From an uncultured Eubacteriales bacterium (GTDB taxonomy: Bacteria; Bacillota; Clostridia; Oscillospirales; CAG-272), in assembly GCA_934365155.1 (NCBI GenBank), contig CAKRMZ010000031.1, forward strand, positions 1 through 19,651: DNA of 19,651 nt, given 5' to 3'. How positions within the stretch are numbered: the stretch's first letter is position 1; every line of letters starts with the position of its first letter. Positions 3,109-9,965 of the stretch are shown here, piece after piece. A program made the position numbers and the translations under genes. The notes beneath the pieces are model-generated. The model did no database searches and was not told the origin of the DNA. It was given only the letters and a program-made list of their open reading frames with translations.

Positions 3109-4584
3109 TCAGTCAAGGGCAATAATGGTTATGCTGTACTGACTATCGTTGAAATTCGTATCCTGGAAGAGCATATCTATGTATTGAAATGTCAAAGTAA
3201 TATCCTCTTCTGCCGTGTATATGGTGTTATATGACATAGTCAGTCTTACGCTTTGACTATCCTTCGGTATAATCACATAGCTTCGCGTCTCCAATGCCAT
3301 TTCAGAACTGTTGTATCCGTCAATGAGTGATGCACCGCACGACTTATCATCGCCCTTAGCGCTGACCGTAACCGTTCCGCTGAACACCAAGCTATATGTA
3401 TGACCTTTTGAAAGGGTGATTTTATTGCTCGATGAATTATAGGAAATCAAATTTCCGCTTTCTTTTTTCACAGTGAACGGAAGCGATGTTCGCCAGCTAT
3501 ATACTTTTCCGCTCGCAGCAAAATATCCGGCACAGGCACCGTCTTTTCCATCTTTTCCGTCTTTTCCGGCTGCACCGTCTTTTCCGTTGATGCCGTCTTT
3601 GCCGTCAATACCGTCGGTACCCGCGGCTTTTACACCGGTGTCGTTTGTACCGATCCACCAGTTGCCGTTTTCACCGATAAAGGGAGTTTTTCCGTCTTCG
3701 CCGTTGGTTCCGTTTATCCCGTCTTTACCGGCTGCGCCATCTTTACCGTTGATTCCGTCTTTGCCGTCAATACCGTCGGTACCCGCGGCCTTTACACCGG
3801 TGTCGTTTTCTCCGATCCACCAGTTGCCGTTTTCACCGATAAAGGGAGTTTTTCCGTCTTCGCCGTTGGTTCCGTTTATCCCGTCTTTACCGGTTGCGCC
3901 ATCTTTACCGTTGATTCCGTCTTTGCCGTCAATACCGTCGGTACCCGCGGCCTTTACGCCGGTGTCGTTTTCTCCGATCCACCAGTTGCCGTTTTCACCG
4001 ATAAAAGGGGTTTTCCCGTCTTCGCCGTTGATGCCGTCTTTACCATTAAGTCCCTGAAGCGTCGAAAGGTCGTATAGGTTCAGCCATATTTCGTCGCCTG
4101 CATAACGCCATTGCAGAGTGTTTACATTAACTCGGAACTCCGGCGTTTTTCCGTTTGCTCCGTCCGCACCCTTTTGTCCGGAGGGGCCTGTAATATCGGC
4201 AAGAGCCACAAGATTCTGCCAATCTTCTCCCTCATAGCACCACTGTATGTATAAATCAGCCTTTTGAACCTTTACTGTTTTACCGTTGATACCATCTTTA
4301 CCGTCGATGCCATTCGTCCCATCCTTGCCGTCAATTCCATCGATGCCATTCTTGCCGTCGGCACCGTTTTCTCCCATAGCACCGGAAAGTTCGGCAAGCG
4401 ACACCAGATCATTCCAGTCGGTGTCATCACTGTATTTCCACTGGATAGCAGTGCCATTGTTCCGCACCTCCAACCGATCCTTCGCCGTACTTGCTTGTTG
4501 TGTTCTGCTGCATCCGGCAAAAAATGCAATCCCCAGCGTCACCGCCACAAGCAGGCAGGCAATCCCATACAACCATTTTCTCAT
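3109..4584 (-). CDS. Collagen-like surface lipoprotein with a C1q/BclA-like C-terminal head (491 aa)
   Basis: ATG at 4582-4584, with GGAGG 9 nt upstream. Lipoprotein signal MRKWLYGIACLLVAVTLGIAFFAG|C. Many G-X-Y triplet runs (GKDGINGKDGATGKDGINGTNGEDGKT) are interrupted by Trp-containing modules. The last ~140 aa are non-collagenous and beta-rich, ending ITIIALD. Confidence 0.9.
   Translation of the reverse strand: MRKWLYGIACLLVAVTLGIAFFAGCSRTQQASTAKDRLEVRNNGTAIQWKYSDDTDWNDLVSLAELSGAMGENGADGKNGIDGIDGKDGTNGIDGKDGINGKTVKVQKADLYIQWCYEGEDWQNLVALADITGPSGQKGADGANGKTPEFRVNVNTLQWRYAGDEIWLNLYDLSTLQGLNGKDGINGEDGKTPFIGENGNWWIGENDTGVKAAGTDGIDGKDGINGKDGATGKDGINGTNGEDGKTPFIGENGNWWIGENDTGVKAAGTDGIDGKDGINGKDGAAGKDGINGTNGEDGKTPFIGENGNWWIGTNDTGVKAAGTDGIDGKDGINGKDGAAGKDGKDGKDGACAGYFAASGKVYSWRTSLPFTVKKESGNLISYNSSSNKITLSKGHTYSLVFSGTVTVSAKGDDKSCGASLIDGYNSSEMALETRSYVIIPKDSQSVRLTMSYNTIYTAEEDITLTFQYIDMLFQDTNFNDSQYSITIIALD
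3540..4035 (-). repeat. Near-identical in-frame tandem repeat, period 162 bp (54 aa), about 3 copies
   Basis: GGTACCCGCGGC starts at 3616, 3778 and 3940, exactly 162 bp apart. The protein unit GEDGKTPFIGENGNWWIGENDTGVKAAGTDGIDGKDGINGKDGA(T/A)GKDGINGTN occurs three times. Confidence 0.9.
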
Positions 4585-6821: not shown

Positions 6822-6863
6822 AGTGAAAAAGAACCGCCCGCACCTTGCAATAAAGGTGCGGGC
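6822..6863 (-). terminator. Rho-independent terminator of the zinc-ribbon protein gene
   Basis: GCCCGCACCTT (6836-6846) pairs with AAGGTGCGGGC (6853-6863), 10 nt after the stop at 6874. In minus sense GGTTCTTTTT follows. Confidence 0.7.
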
Positions 6864-6873
6864 ATCCGTTCGA

Positions 6874-7668
6874 TCAGGAAAGATACAATTTCATTTTATC
6901 AAATGATTTAGAGGTTTCATGATCTGCATTTTTAAAGTCGGCCGAAAACGAATTATAACTTCCGTCCGTTCTTATGACTATATTTGTCAGCGACAAATAG
7001 TTTTCGTAAAATGCTTTCAAAGCCGAATAGGCTTCCGTATATTCGTCCGGAGGGTTTTTGAGCTGCTTCATCAGTTCCAGAACCTCATCCTGATTATTTG
7101 AAATCGCCGACAAACTGCTCGAAAAATCCTTATCGGAAAGCAAATTATAGAGAGCATCGTTAAAATCGCTTACAAATTTGCCGTTTTCCATTGTGTATTT
7201 GTCTGTTTCCGAATCCCGCTTTTCGTGAATTGCATTATACCAAACGGCCAGTATTAAATTGCCTGCCGTTTCTGCTTCCGCCGCGCCGTCAAGCATTTTG
7301 TATGTAACCGTTTTTAAATTATCGTCATACTTTTTCAAATTTTCCGAATATATTTTTAAATTTTCCGCATCAATCGCCGCCTTTCTCTTACTGACAGCAA
7401 ATGCCCCGATCAATCCGATAAGTATGACGGCCGATAGAATAATTGCAGTAATCATAATACCTTTATGCTTTTTCTTTTTCGGGATATCGACACCGTTAGA
7501 GGCGCCGCAAGCAGGGCATGTGTCCTGTTCCTTCGGATATTGTCCTCCGCATTCGGGACAGGTTATAGCAGTGGTGGAAATAGTATCGTTTTGGTAATTG
7601 CAGTGCGGGCAAACAGCGGCTTTATCGCTGATGGATTGTCCGCAATTCGGGCAGTGAATCAATGCCAT
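6874..7668 (-). CDS. Double zinc-ribbon, single-pass membrane protein with an extracytoplasmic helical domain (264 aa)
   Basis: CPNCG..x11..CPHC and CPECG..x10..CPAC motifs, then a KKKKHK stop-transfer and the TM helix GIMITAIILSAVILIGLIGAFAV, then about 160 aa rich in Lys/Asp/Asn. Start moved from the track's 7767 to the ATG at 7666-7668, which has an AGGAGA SD. Confidence 0.8.
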   Translation of the reverse strand: MALIHCPNCGQSISDKAAVCPHCNYQNDTISTTAITCPECGGQYPKEQDTCPACGASNGVDIPKKKKHKGIMITAIILSAVILIGLIGAFAVSKRKAAIDAENLKIYSENLKKYDDNLKTVTYKMLDGAAEAETAGNLILAVWYNAIHEKRDSETDKYTMENGKFVSDFNDALYNLLSDKDFSSSLSAISNNQDEVLELMKQLKNPPDEYTEAYSALKAFYENYLSLTNIVIRTDGSYNSFSADFKNADHETSKSFDKMKLYLS

Positions 7669-7684
7669 TTTGATTTCTCCTTTC

Positions 7685-7867
7685 TTAATCGTCCTCGTCC
7701 TCGTCGTTTGGCCACGACGAGATAAAATGAATATCCCCGCTGTCCATATCCATGGCCATATTGTCACCCATGCGCATCAGCATATTACCGTCGGAGTCAA
7801 TTGCCATGTTGTCGGAAACGGTGTACGCAAAATCACCATCGTCATAGTCGAAGAAACGCTTGCTCAT
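7685..7867 (-). CDS. Hyper-acidic Asp/Met-rich microprotein (60 aa), function unknown
   Basis: ATG at 7865-7867 with a GGAG SD, 12 nt after the HNH stop and 16 nt before the next start. Hand count: 15 Asp, 2 Glu, 3 Lys/Arg, 8 Met. Internal repeat DNMAIDSDG / DNMAMDMDSG. C-terminus DEDEDD. Confidence 0.65.
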   Translation of the reverse strand: MSKRFFDYDDGDFAYTVSDNMAIDSDGNMLMRMGDNMAMDMDSGDIHFISSWPNDEDEDD

Positions 7868-7879
7868 AGAGATTTCTCC

Positions 7880-8191
7880 TCAATCTTCAATAATCTTGTA
7901 TTCCATACGGGAGCCTTTGACTCTGCGTGCGTGGTAGTGGGTGCCGTTCGCTTTCCAGTGCGGAAAGCGATCTGCTTTTTCCTCGTTGGTATCACGATGG
8001 CAAATGATAATGTTTTCGGGGACGTTGCAACCGCCGGCGGAAAGCGGACGGATGTGGTCGATCGTCGGGTGATAAGCACTGTTCGGATTCCCGCAAGCGG
8101 ATTTTTTCATCAGCCGTCCGGTATAATCATACGCCTCTTGCTTTGTACCGAAAAACCGGCTCCATACATCGATGGTCTTATACTTTGACAT
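7880..8191 (-). CDS. Compact stand-alone HNH endonuclease-fold protein (103 aa)
   Basis: HNH core IDHIRPLSAGG...ENIIICHRDTNEEKAD (His-Asn-Asn/His spacing). ATG at 8189-8191, with AGGAGG 8 nt upstream. Confidence 0.85.
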   Translation of the reverse strand: MSKYKTIDVWSRFFGTKQEAYDYTGRLMKKSACGNPNSAYHPTIDHIRPLSAGGCNVPENIIICHRDTNEEKADRFPHWKANGTHYHARRVKGSRMEYKIIED

Positions 8192-8222
8192 TTTAAGTAC
8201 CTCCTTTTCAGTTGTTATTTAT

Positions 8223-8267
8223 ATTCTATAATCCAAACGGATAACTGTCGATGAACCGCATGGTTCA
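8223..8267 (-). promoter_or_regulatory. Candidate promoter of the HNH operon with an abutting inverted repeat
   Basis: Minus sense: -35 TCGACA (8246-8251), 17-nt spacer, -10 TAGAAT (8223-8228). The inverted repeat TGAACC-gcat-GGTTCA (8252-8267) sits immediately upstream of the -35. No T-tract follows it, so it is not a convincing terminator. Confidence 0.4.
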
Positions 8268-8276
8268 AGATACCCT

Positions 8277-9524
8277 TTAATAATTTGATGTGTCCGGTTT
8301 TACTTTGCGTATGGCATCATAGGAAGCATTTAGCTCTTTTATCAGACGGTCAATCGTCAGATTGCTTGATTGACTGTGAACTTTAACGGTATTGGAACAG
8401 AATTTCATGCAGTCATGTTTTGCTCGAGAAAAGAAGTATGACACAAAATCATTGTCATAATCAAAGTTAAAAAAGTCCATGGCGTTTCGAACAACATCAT
8501 CTACAGGTGCCTTAAAGGAATCTGAGGCAAAATACCTCTTTGCTGAATCAAAAGCCTCGTCAACCATGGATTGCAGTTTGTTTAAAACCTTTGTATTATG
8601 AGCGATCGCTTTTTTGAGTAATACCTCGGAATATTTATTTTTTGCTTGTATCATTCGGTCAAGAAGCATTGACAAATAAGGATACACAAATATATGCTTG
8701 TTGCCGAATTGATCTACAATCTCAAATTCTTCCGAGAAGTAGCCTAATACTTTATCGCTTGATTTTTCAATTTCAGATATGACATTTTCATTGTAATAGT
8801 CTTTGCAGCAAGTCATCGGGCTTGTATAAACGCATAGCTGATATAAAGTGGGGATTTCCCGTGCACGCAAACTTGTAAGTATGTCAAAATCGTTATTTTC
8901 CATAGCCAATGCAATCATTTTTTGACGCAGACCTCGTTCCTCACAATGAGATCCGAGCTCTGTATCAAGAGAGTCGATCAAACCTCGGCGTTTAATGCTC
9001 GTTCCCGCTCCAAATCCAAGAATGTATCTGGTACAATCATGTTCGCTGTCATCAACAAACCAAATATAACGGTTATCCATCAGATATTTCATAAATTCAT
9101 AGTTTTTGAATTCAAGTGCATAGTCTATAACGGTTTTATTGTATTCATCCGGATTTAGAAATAATTTGTCTTCTCTTTTGATATATCGATCCCACATTTC
9201 GGGGTCATGAGAAAAGGCTATTTCATAATTTGTAACATGATTGCTGATTGGTTGATAGTGTTTACCTGCGCTTAAAATTTCCTCACAAGAAACCCCTAAT
9301 AATTCACAGAATAGCGGCAAATCGTAGGTTTGGATCGCTTTGCTGCCTTTTATAATTTGAGACATCCTATTCTGCATTTTTGCAATCTCTCCATTGGAGG
9401 CATCCAGCTTTGCAAGTTTCAAATAAGCAATACAAAACTGCCTGACATTCGGATAATCGCTTTTTTCAATCAGCATATTTAAATAACGCCCAACCTTTTC
9501 ATTGTTCCTTTCTAAATAGAACAT
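8277..9524 (-). CDS. XRE-type HTH protein fused to about 330 aa with no motif I recognise (415 aa)
   Basis: The N-terminus matches the XRE HTH pattern (NRMSQIIKGSKAIQTYDLPLFCELLGVSCEEIL). The rest is rich in Lys/Asp/Phe/Tyr and probably helical. The track start at 9533 is a GTG sitting inside the SD, so I call the ATG at 9522-9524, which has GGAGG 8 nt upstream. Confidence 0.8.
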   Translation of the reverse strand: MFYLERNNEKVGRYLNMLIEKSDYPNVRQFCIAYLKLAKLDASNGEIAKMQNRMSQIIKGSKAIQTYDLPLFCELLGVSCEEILSAGKHYQPISNHVTNYEIAFSHDPEMWDRYIKREDKLFLNPDEYNKTVIDYALEFKNYEFMKYLMDNRYIWFVDDSEHDCTRYILGFGAGTSIKRRGLIDSLDTELGSHCEERGLRQKMIALAMENNDFDILTSLRAREIPTLYQLCVYTSPMTCCKDYYNENVISEIEKSSDKVLGYFSEEFEIVDQFGNKHIFVYPYLSMLLDRMIQAKNKYSEVLLKKAIAHNTKVLNKLQSMVDEAFDSAKRYFASDSFKAPVDDVVRNAMDFFNFDYDNDFVSYFFSRAKHDCMKFCSNTVKVHSQSSNLTIDRLIKELNASYDAIRKVKPDTSNY

Positions 9525-9651
9525 ATATTGCACCTCCGTATTCTATTTTTATTTTACTTCAATTCGATCAAACAGTCTATTACCTATTTGTGTATGAAAA
9601 AAGACTATTGCAGTTATTTAATTTATTTATGTATGCTTTTGGCATATATTT

Positions 9652-9680
9652 ATTATAATAGCCCTTGCTGTTGCCGACAA
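9652..9680 (-). promoter_or_regulatory. Candidate promoter of the HTH gene
   Basis: Minus sense: -35 TTGTCG (9675-9680), 17-nt spacer, perfect -10 TATAAT (9652-9657). Confidence 0.4.
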
Positions 9681-9830
9681 ACGGTTTTGCAGGATACATA
9701 GTTTATCCTCCGCTGAGGTATACGTCCGACACAAGCACAGCATTTTGAATTTTCCGGCAAACAGTCTACTTGTCAAAAGGATTCCGCCAAAATTCTCTTG
9801 CTCATAAAAACAAGAAATCCGAGTTTCATA

Positions 9831-9868
9831 AAACAAAAAGTCCTTGAAAACTCAATGTTTTCAAGGAC
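9831..9868 (-). terminator. Rho-independent terminator after tRNA-Ser
   Basis: GTCCTTGAAAAC (9840-9851) pairs with GTTTTCAAGGAC (9857-9868). In minus sense TTTTTGTTT follows. Confidence 0.75.
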
Positions 9869-9873
9869 TTCGT

Positions 9874-9965
9874 TGGCGGAGAAGGAGAGATTCGAACTCT
9901 CGAACCGCTTTTGACGGTTACACGATTTCCAGTCGTGCGCCCTCGACCAGCTAGGCGACTTCTCC
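9874..9965 (-). tRNA. tRNA-Ser, anticodon GGA (92 nt, long variable arm, encoded CCA)
   Basis: Folded by hand:
- acceptor stem GGAGAAG/CTTCTCC;
- anticodon stem CACGA/TCGTG with loop CT-GGA-AA;
- variable arm AACCG/CGGTT;
- T arm GAGAG-TTCGAAT-CTCTC;
- discriminator G, then CCA. Confidence 0.93.

Follow-up and report, generated by a model that had tools for sequence, protein, structure and literature searches.

A cassette of four co-directional genes lies next to a tRNA-Ser(GGA) gene on contig CAKRMZ010000031.1 of the uncultured Eubacteriales bacterium assembly GCA_934365155.1. The genes encode a large helix-turn-helix (HTH) protein with ankyrin-like repeats (HTH-ANK), a compact HNH protein, a hyper-acidic microprotein, and a membrane protein with a double zinc ribbon (ZNR). 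We analysed the whole stretch of 19,651 nucleotides (nt), here called the window, together with comparison loci and contigs that are denoted by L-numbers. Sequence comparison indicates that the cassette is a composite of an HTH-ANK/ZNR operon and an inserted HNH-acidic unit with a putative promoter of its own. The finding is broader than the cassette, encompassing an undescribed acidic hub that pairs with many upstream genes, a large and putatively autoregulated HTH-ANK family, and a mobile HNH-acidic unit.

Insertion of an HNH-acidic unit into a regulator operon

All four genes are on the minus strand and follow each other in the order HTH-ANK (8277..9524; 415 amino acids (aa) counted from the ATG), HNH (7880..8191; 103 aa), acidic protein (7685..7867; 60 aa), and ZNR (6874..7668; 264 aa). 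The gaps between them are 85, 12 and 16 nt, and a GGAGG-type Shine-Dalgarno sequence (SD) precedes each open reading frame (ORF). This arrangement past the tRNA-Ser(GGA) terminator had been described in a first-pass annotation made from the sequence alone, and our ORF calls agree with it. The component identities given there were also right: we find an XRE-type HTH fold, an HNH domain in Pfam, an isoelectric point (pI) of 4.05 for the acidic protein, and zinc ribbons followed by a transmembrane segment. Its four counts of guanine plus cytosine (GC) in single 60-nt lines were exact (20/60 at 8641-8700, 19/60 at 7141-7200, 34/60 at 7921-7980, and 35/60 at 3601-3660), and the mosaic composition read from them is confirmed by the GC content per gene, which ranges from 36.5% in the HTH-ANK gene to 48.1% in the acidic gene and 49.7% in the HNH gene, with 45.5% for the whole window. 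Within the ZNR gene, the GC content falls from 47% in the 5' portion to 38% in the 3' portion.

The mobile unit of ~590 base pairs (bp; 7681..8268, minus strand) comprises a leader, the HNH gene, the 12-nt gap, and the acidic gene. It is delimited by its DNA identity to other contexts: positions 7681-8268 are 87-89% identical to L094-L096, and positions 7681-8207 are equally similar to L097-L106, with unrelated flanks. The homology begins 9 nt past the HTH-ANK stop codon and ends 4 nt past the acidic stop codon, so that the unit lies precisely in the interval that separates the stop codon of HTH-ANK from the ribosome-binding site of ZNR. Across the HTH-ANK/unit junction the GC content changes from 36.5% to 48-50%. 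The leader of 77 nt is also conserved in L094 and L096, in which a 71-aa HTH_3 gene precedes it, and contains a candidate promoter (TCGACA-17-TAGAAT; 8223..8251, minus strand) with 10/12 matches in a consensus scan. Just upstream of this promoter, in the shared leader, is the palindrome GAACCATGCGGTTC (8253-8266).

The nearest relatives without the unit are L009 and L010, with HTH-ANK proteins 74% and 68% identical to that of the window; their ZNR genes start 22 nt and 16 nt past the HTH-ANK stop codon, respectively. A third locus, L011, shares the downstream TetR and collagen-like genes of the window, and its HTH-ANK gene is followed by an acidic gene alone. These three loci come from different species, and the unit is absent from the equivalent junction in each of them. 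The simplest history is that the unit was inserted, or was recombined through a resident acidic gene, into an HTH-ANK operon. Among at least eight contigs of the window's own species there is no presence/absence polymorphism of the unit. Several metagenome contigs of this species (L002, L003, L135-L137) begin no more than ~125 nt from the unit or inside it, as assemblies tend to do where different genomes in a sample have a sequence in common.

Scanning species-representative genomes gave 161 HTH-ANK loci, of which 80 were retrieved and compared with the window proteins by tblastn; all synteny and operator counts given here use these 80. The 103-aa HNH protein is never the downstream neighbour of HTH-ANK among them and is so placed only in the window's own species. 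Likewise, synteny of all four genes is confined to contigs from that species (L001-L008, L135-L137). The first-pass annotation had read the quartet as typical parts of defence, abortive-infection or toxin-immunity modules, a reading that by its own criterion would fall if the genes were not syntenic outside close relatives. That reading gains support for the HNH and acidic genes from the company they keep elsewhere, and fails for the quartet as one system. The same annotation could not match the quartet to any named system, and neither can we: PADLOC, NCBIfam and PHROG gave no convincing match beyond generic HNH models and PHROG 4852, and neither the motif strings nor a three-gene system of this kind turned up in text searches of the literature.

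Partners of the HNH and acidic proteins

The 103-aa HNH protein (pI 9.2) is of the Cas9/IscB/PtuB type. It scores above the Pfam gathering cut-offs for HNH_4 (7.8e-6) and HNH (5.3e-5), matches Cas9d, Cas9 and IscB locally in NCBIfam, and has AceCas9 (8d2k) as its best match among PDB sequences. The DH...N...N motif is intact, and there is no domain for extra DNA recognition. At least 562 homologous clusters (clustered at 90% identity) exist, with identities of 70-89%. No relative of this HNH turned up in viral contigs, in a scan limited to exact eight-residue patterns from the window protein, and there was no match in phage records; the lone match in the plasmid collection is a Mycoplasmopsis record that is really a chromosome.

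Two kinds of gene recur upstream of HNH. The first encodes an ABC ATPase of ~600 aa (L089, L090, L093, L097-L106, L113), whose best PADLOC matches are AriA (6e-27), AbiLi, Old, PtuA and GajA, with a local match to PtuA in NCBIfam. The second encodes an HTH-like protein of 66-81 aa (L062, L091, L092, L094-L096, L126-L134) and is itself preceded by a variable gene for a protein of 371-507 aa. The short HTH protein of 71 aa has no detectable similarity to the N-terminus of HTH-ANK. In L062 the HNH homologue is 8 kilobases (kb) from an HTH-ANK gene, on the opposite strand. Genes near HNH include AbiH, an AbiL-like AAA_21/RloB pair, SIR2, a Schlafen-type helicase, DUF4238, Fic, integrases and relaxases. 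The trio of 371-507-aa protein (which has no family match), HTH-like protein and HNH recurs in defence islands or beside integrases, with or without a small fourth gene, and may be a system in its own right. Downstream of HNH, the acidic protein is encoded in L089, L094-L106 and L113.

The acidic protein has 17 acidic (Asp/Glu) and 3 basic (Lys/Arg) residues among its 60, arranged in three predicted D-x-D-G β-hairpin repeats and an acidic tail. Its AlphaFold2 model (predicted local distance difference test score (pLDDT), 83.6) contains six short strands, and the protein looks like a folded, cytoplasmic all-β repeat protein; one family member has an extra repeat of 16 residues. The N-terminus (MSKRFFDYDDGDF...) is not hydrophobic, and there is no signal or export sequence. 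The family comprises 977 clusters at 90% identity and 447 at 50%, with listed members of 42-104 aa. None of the 150 matches listed from a search of 1.84 billion representative proteins has the acidic domain fused to a larger protein. Codon comparisons reveal 12-17 synonymous and 4-6 non-synonymous differences in 52 codons; since synonymous changes outnumber non-synonymous ones, this is a real gene under purifying selection. The protein has no Pfam, NCBIfam, PHROG or PADLOC match, and the gene has no match among plasmids. In L089 (5370-5564) an unrelated basic sequence stands in place of the C-terminal part of the acidic protein and its acidic tail; a frameshift is the probable cause, and the HNH gene of this locus is intact. 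Two other ideas about the protein were dropped. A Met-rich copper-binding peptide was rejected on the grounds that Met takes alternating hydrophobic positions in the strands, where a second acidic type described below has Tyr or Phe, and a secreted peptide or precursor of a ribosomally synthesised and post-translationally modified peptide on the grounds that there is no leader sequence.

Elsewhere the acidic gene follows several different genes. One encodes a second type of HNH protein that is 26% identical to the 103-aa HNH over its full length (E 1e-11; L118, L144-L149); the pair is located at the end of a serine-recombinase element (L144-L149) and also occurs in MT836178 (L118). Another, found on IMG/VR contigs (L120, L121, L123-L125), encodes a CD-NTase-like protein of ~225 aa with a GS...DxD motif that matches a CBASS cyclase model at 7.8e-7. 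A third encodes a basic, Asn/Gln-rich protein that we call NPNN (L107-L116, L119, L122, L138-L143, and Dorea phage PV036443). The NPNN-acidic pair is a moron between tail genes in the Dorea phage, with further IMG/VR examples in L119 and L122; it is carried by a family of tyrosine-integrase elements, usually with a relaxase, at six different chromosomal sites (L138-L143); and it is on the chromosome of one gut species (L107-L116). NPNN proteins are small and basic, with repeated NQxNPNN motifs and no Pfam, NCBIfam, PHROG or PADLOC match, and their genes are located directly before the acidic gene, after HNH, or after HTH-ANK (L107-L116; L117, 5776-5976; L119, 4702-4983; L131, 4350-4511; L019, 11233-11541).

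Partners are exchanged at fixed positions. At a tRNA-Ser(CGA)-gapdh site in one gut species, either ATPase-HNH (L097) or NPNN (L107) precedes a nearly identical acidic gene. Mobile elements of this species integrate into the tRNA-Ser gene just left of the cassette, leaving a partial tRNA copy. Within a family of integrase/relaxase elements, the same end carries either NPNN-acidic (L138) or a series of genes for a 371-aa protein, HTH, HNH, acidic protein and Fic (L094). The acidic gene is ~1.25 kb inside the end of such elements, which are inserted at many sites. Members of the same acidic family (75-97% identical) follow HNH, NTase-like or NPNN genes with no HTH-ANK nearby. The acidic microprotein is the hub of a combinatorial set of closely coupled pairs of genes, in which its partners handle nucleic acids or nucleotides. 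Many copies are found in defence islands, at the ends of mobile elements (integrase-proximal ends among them), and in phage moron positions.

HTH-ANK, ZNR and the surroundings of the cassette

HTH-ANK belongs to a family of at least 1,261 clusters at 90% identity, which is conserved over the full length down to ~40% identity and has no Pfam, NCBIfam, PADLOC or PHROG family match. All 80 retrieved loci are from Clostridia (Oscillospiraceae/Ruminococcaceae, Acutalibacteraceae, Lachnospiraceae, Eubacteriales, and Anaerofustis). The AlphaFold2 model (pLDDT, 84) has an XRE/cI-type HTH at the N-terminus, matched by Foldseek to ClgR, C.BclI and lambda cI with a probability of 1.0, followed by predicted helical repeats and an α/β C-terminal domain. 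The repeats are ankyrin-like, with weak Ank_2 matches in 7/24 family members. PrgX and ComR are the best whole-chain Foldseek matches and are weak (E 6e-3; TM-score, ~0.2; root-mean-square deviation, 16 Å). A search of PDB sequences with the HTH-ANK profile gave no match.

The non-coding DNA upstream contains a conserved palindrome with the core ATATGC-N5-GCATAT. Allowing up to two mismatches in the 260 nt upstream of HTH-ANK, we found it in 53/80 loci, compared to 2/80 control regions. It is mostly 104-140 nt before the start codon, often in 2-3 copies ~39 nt apart, and is retained down to ~40% HTH-ANK protein identity. In the window, the palindromic operator-like site (TATATGC-N5-GCATA(C)A; 9630..9648) is one mismatch from a perfect palindrome and directly 3' of the -10 hexamer of a predicted Sigma-A-type promoter of the HTH-ANK operon (TTGTCG-17-TATAAT; 9652..9680, minus strand; 10/12 in a consensus scan), whose position is conserved in an alignment of L009, L010, L011 and L017. 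No further copy above chance was found in the window. HTH-ANK is most likely a putative autorepressor that acts through this palindrome at its own promoter. In many family members (for example, L040, L047, L064 and L077) the palindrome occurs at about -111, -72 and -44, with spacings of ~39 and then ~28 nt; such regular spacing suggests cooperative binding by an oligomer.

The acidic gene is the sole conserved neighbour of HTH-ANK. In 46 of the 76 loci with sufficient downstream DNA, an acidic microprotein gene starts between -37 and +24 nt from the HTH-ANK stop codon. The 46 partners comprise 24 of the window type and 22 of a Tyr/Glu-rich second type, and the pairing spans at least 14 HTH-ANK clades. 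When HTH-ANK proteins are clustered, the downstream partner is mostly clade-specific, with ZNR, lipoprotein-like or NPNN genes as the payload, but it turns over within the window's clade: the gene after HTH-ANK is acidic in L011 and L014, ZNR in L009 and L010, and HNH followed by acidic and ZNR in the window, with no recognised partner downstream in L012, L013 and L015. In one clade (L068, L076, L080, L085) the HTH-ANK stop codon is overlapped by a gene for a 265-286-aa protein with a lipoprotein-type signal peptide in place of an acidic microprotein gene. HTH-ANK is an accessory gene, and its genomic location differs between species.

ZNR scores above the Pfam cut-offs for Zn_Ribbon_1, Zn_ribbon_3 and DZR. 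The double zinc ribbon at the N-terminus, predicted to be cytoplasmic, is followed by a single hydrophobic segment, predicted to be a transmembrane helix, and by a helical outer domain of ~170 aa, which matches PHROG 4852 (function not known for this PHROG) at 1.3e-18. Residues 63-261 are 27% identical to phi3T_133 (KY030782.1, 89449-90075), a hypothetical protein, and this domain is common to SPbeta-like Bacillus phages. There is no PADLOC match. Full-length ZNR homologues of 249-292 aa directly follow HTH-ANK in 4/80 loci, with identities of 57% in L009 and L010, and 37% in L042 and L067. Shorter zinc-ribbon ORFs of 62-116 aa follow HTH-ANK in L014, L016, L019, L020 and L022. In the window, the operon is closed by a strong predicted intrinsic terminator (6835..6864, minus strand) with a 12-bp stem that contains 8 GC pairs, followed by a T-run.

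The tRNA-Ser(GGA) gene (9874..9965, minus strand; ARAGORN, and Rfam tRNA with 56 bits) has its own predicted intrinsic terminator (9837..9871, minus strand; inverted repeat I9), a 15-bp stem and a T-run. This tRNA gene is the boundary between core genes and accessory genes. Upstream of the cassette are core genes for a U32 peptidase, proB-like and proA-like proteins, ThiI (thiI), RNase Y (rny) and YmdB (ymdB); downstream are genes for TetR, two collagen-like proteins, and a surface protein with Listeria-Bacteroides repeats. One of the collagen-like genes (3109-4584) encodes 491 aa in the window, L001 and L136, 383 aa in L002, and 437 aa in L135, which is strain-level polymorphism of the Gly-X-Y repeat tract. 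A classical tRNA-integrated genomic island was rejected, as it had been in the first-pass annotation: a Pfam scan of the large window ORFs revealed no integrase or transposase, and the 3' end of the tRNA gene is not repeated in the window, even when as many as 3 mismatches in 28 nt are allowed. We found no direct repeats flanking the cassette and no Rfam families other than tRNA.

A tRNA-Ser gene is located ~340-570 nt upstream, on the same strand, of HTH-ANK in the window, L017, L026 and L031 (365-572 nt in these last three), and of ATPase-HNH-acidic in L097. The anticodons are GGA (window), CGA (L017, L097) and TGA (L026, L031), and no other tRNA type was seen in this position upstream of these cassettes. 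tRNA-Ser shares with tRNA-Tyr the long variable arm of class II tRNAs. tRNA-Tyr is the reported target of Septu and of retron-Eco7 PtuAB (PMC13096335, PMC12673091). The recurrence of tRNA-Ser could reflect an integration hot spot or something functional.

Interpretation and relation to known systems

We tentatively interpret the cassette as a composite conflict locus, the reading that we favour over the others although we put it at slightly less than even odds, in which HNH would be the effector, the acidic protein a promiscuous and possibly DNA-mimicking binder of nucleic-acid-binding proteins, and HTH-ANK an autorepressor. The locus has two layers. One is the HTH-ANK regulator operon, which is most likely self-repressed through the palindrome and in this lineage also carries ZNR; the other is the ~590-bp mobile unit, bringing a candidate promoter, a Cas9/PtuB-type HNH, and a hyper-acidic β-hairpin microprotein. 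HNH may be the effector nuclease of a conflict system and, in some genomes, part of a Septu-like ATPase-nuclease pair. The acidic protein would be co-translated right after its upstream partner (two HNH types, CD-NTase-like, NPNN, or HTH-ANK) and might act as a promiscuous binder or inhibitor of nucleic-acid-binding proteins, restraining the upstream protein until an event such as infection by a phage or a move into another host removes the acidic protein or titrates it away. Read-through transcription could be supplied by the HTH-ANK operon, and the acidic protein may also act on the DNA-binding domain of HTH-ANK itself. In a bolder version, which we think quite unlikely, the acidic protein would be a hyper-promiscuous protein DNA mimic of a new kind that serves as safety catch or bait for many conflict effectors of gut Clostridia and their mobile elements, among them both HNH types, ABC-ATPase/HNH pairs, the CD-NTase-like and NPNN proteins, and HTH-ANK. 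In ATPase-HNH-acidic operons it would then play the role that multicopy single-stranded DNA (msDNA) has in retron-Septu, filling the DNA-binding groove and keeping the nuclease inactive until a phage protein removes it.

Several observations weigh against a composite conflict locus of this kind. HNH proteins with an intact catalytic motif occur with no small downstream gene (L062, L126-L130), and in other loci HNH is followed by different small partners, a Glu-rich 55-aa protein (L090-L093) or NPNN (L131-L134); hence, the acidic protein is not an obligatory antitoxin for HNH. No PADLOC model matches HNH, save weak local matches to Cas9. The nearly identical acidic genes that are coupled to different partners at the tRNA-Ser(CGA)-gapdh site argue against partner-specific co-evolution. 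The acidic model has no significant PDB match, its best viral match (BFVD) is an uncharacterised 49-aa phage protein, and homology between the window type and the Tyr/Glu-rich second type is not demonstrable (hhalign probability, 19%). As regards HTH-ANK, most loci have ordinary chromosomal genes as neighbours, and the protein is absent from 2.9 million viral contigs (IMG/VR). Our confidence is limited mainly because HNH can exist without the acidic gene and because the acidic sequence does not track the type of partner.

The mobile-element company of the acidic gene also fits an anti-defence function, which we consider unlikely. The acidic protein would inhibit restriction, CRISPR or some other nuclease of the host by mimicking DNA, the HTH genes upstream, short or long, would encode autorepressors that limit its expression like the anti-CRISPR-associated (Aca) proteins, and HNH, NPNN and NTase-like proteins would be cargo. 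The protein is tiny and hyper-acidic (pI 4.05), and its gene is found near the ends of integrase/relaxase elements at many sites, beside a serine recombinase, in moron positions in Dorea phage PV036443 and IMG/VR contigs, and, in L090 and L091, within the same island as an ArdA-like gene. The 1-3 inverted repeats that overlap the HTH-ANK promoter resemble Aca operators. However, the gene order is opposite to that of anti-CRISPR (acr)-aca operons; HTH-ANK is 415 aa long, with an extensive conserved portion outside the HTH, and its genes are mostly on chromosomes and missing from viral contigs; and the acidic model does not resemble any known DNA mimic structurally. In the gut species with the tRNA-Ser(CGA)-gapdh site, moreover, the chromosomal acidic gene is outside the integrating elements, between an attR-like tRNA-Ser remnant and gapdh, and follows a defence-type ATPase-HNH pair. 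If instead the deep HTH-ANK-acidic pairing (46/76 loci, at least 14 clades) is given most weight, the two proteins could form a regulatory switch, with a repressor and an anti-repressor in the manner of SinR and SinI controlling a small regulon or a payload (ZNR, lipoprotein or NPNN gene); the HNH insertion would be accidental. The conserved operator-like site, the mostly ordinary neighbours of HTH-ANK, and the clade-dependent payload are all consistent with a switch. Yet the same acidic family accompanies HNH, NTase-like and NPNN proteins on mobile elements and phages with no HTH-ANK nearby, HTH-ANK is accessory and changes location between species, and the single operator-like site in the window means that no regulon is visible. 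We rate a switch as rather improbable.

A selfish homing unit would account for the precise intergenic insertion with sharp homology boundaries, for the presence of the unit after HTH-ANK, a short HTH or an ATPase in unrelated genomes at 87-89% DNA identity, and for the apparent promoter within the unit: HNH would cut unoccupied intergenic sites, repair would copy the unit in, and the acidic protein would protect the carrier. We consider this very unlikely, given that the 103-aa HNH has no extra DNA-recognition domain, the junctions share no evident target sequence except for a few G-rich bases, neither the phage records nor the viral contigs (scanned for exact eight-residue patterns only) gave a match, the unit is not polymorphic within the species (at least eight contigs), and its left boundary varies by context (8268 or 8207). 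The original idea that all four proteins form one co-evolved defence or toxin-immunity system has in its favour the tight spacing, the SD before each gene, the single closing terminator, and an identical arrangement in every contig of the window species. It is hardly credible when the quartet is absent from all other loci examined, the unit appears to be a recent insertion with different GC content and its own promoter, and each gene is found elsewhere without the others.

Whichever mechanism applies, three large unnamed families (acidic protein, HTH-ANK, and 103-aa HNH) are found mainly in Clostridia of the human and animal gut, and the combinatorial gene network that they form extends to defence-type ATPases and nucleases as well as to integrative elements and temperate phages. 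Should the acidic protein prove to be a general neutraliser or a DNA mimic, this would represent a compact new regulatory principle for nuclease-based immunity or counter-immunity, and a 60-aa acidic protein could serve as an inhibitor scaffold. The conservation of the operator-like site at ~40% protein identity makes binding by HTH-ANK directly testable. For annotation, the lesson is that a tidy-looking operon may be a recent mosaic.

Among known defence systems, Septu (including the PtuAB of retron Eco7/Ec78) is the closest to the HNH gene in other genomes, where a HNH protein of 83-90% identity is encoded directly after the ~600-aa ABC ATPase (L097-type operons). AceCas9 is the best PDB sequence match of the window HNH, and the active site of PtuB has been reported to resemble the HNH domain of AceCas9 (PMC12819146). 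The window locus is not Septu, however: there is no ATPase gene, with HTH-ANK upstream instead; the PADLOC PtuB model matches neither the window HNH nor its homologues in L097 and L090; HNH is about half the size of PtuB, leaving little room for the PtuA-binding C-terminal helical domain; and an acidic third gene is attached, a component that Septu does not have. The locus is not an RRNPP module (PrgX, ComR, PlcR) either. It shares with these an XRE-type HTH joined to a helical-repeat domain and a 50-60-aa ORF right after, but the fold matches of HTH-ANK to PrgX and ComR are weak, its repeats look ankyrin-like (weak Ank_2) rather than like tetratricopeptide repeats, and the acidic protein, for which six β-strands are predicted, lacks any signal or export sequence.

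Anti-CRISPR loci and DNA mimics (Ocr, ArdA, Ugi, phi29 p56) resemble the acidic gene in encoding tiny, very acidic proteins on phages and integrative elements, and the anti-CRISPR loci also in having an adjoining HTH gene, here a putative autoregulator, with inverted-repeat operator-like sites at the promoter. In addition, the defence system PARIS is triggered by the DNA mimic Ocr (PMC11464382), and its AriA is the best PADLOC match of the HNH partner ATPase. Differences are that the acidic protein resembles no known mimic in sequence or structure, the HTH gene precedes the small gene, mobile-element genes are missing from the window, and most acidic copies next to HTH-ANK are chromosomal.

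An HNH gene followed by a gene for an acidic protein is reminiscent of the DNase and immunity genes of colicins (colicin E9, Im9). More generally, the co-directional and tight arrangement, with an HNH-acidic gap of 12 nt here and 10-13 nt elsewhere, is like that of type II toxin-antitoxin pairs, and the small acidic gene either overlaps a putative enzyme gene or starts 0-24 nt past it. In several genomes, however, HNH persists without the acidic partner; because the partner is dispensable, this is not a standard type II pair. The acidic protein also differs from antitoxins in having no DNA-binding domain and in a sequence that does not track the type of partner, and its predicted all-β repeat structure differs from the helical Im9 and Panacea domain. 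Domains that promiscuously pair with, and neutralise, many families of toxins have been reported in Panacea (PMC8832971) and NetFlax (PMC10440598). The acidic hub shares with them the trait of one small conserved partner that is combined with upstream genes of several families unrelated to each other.

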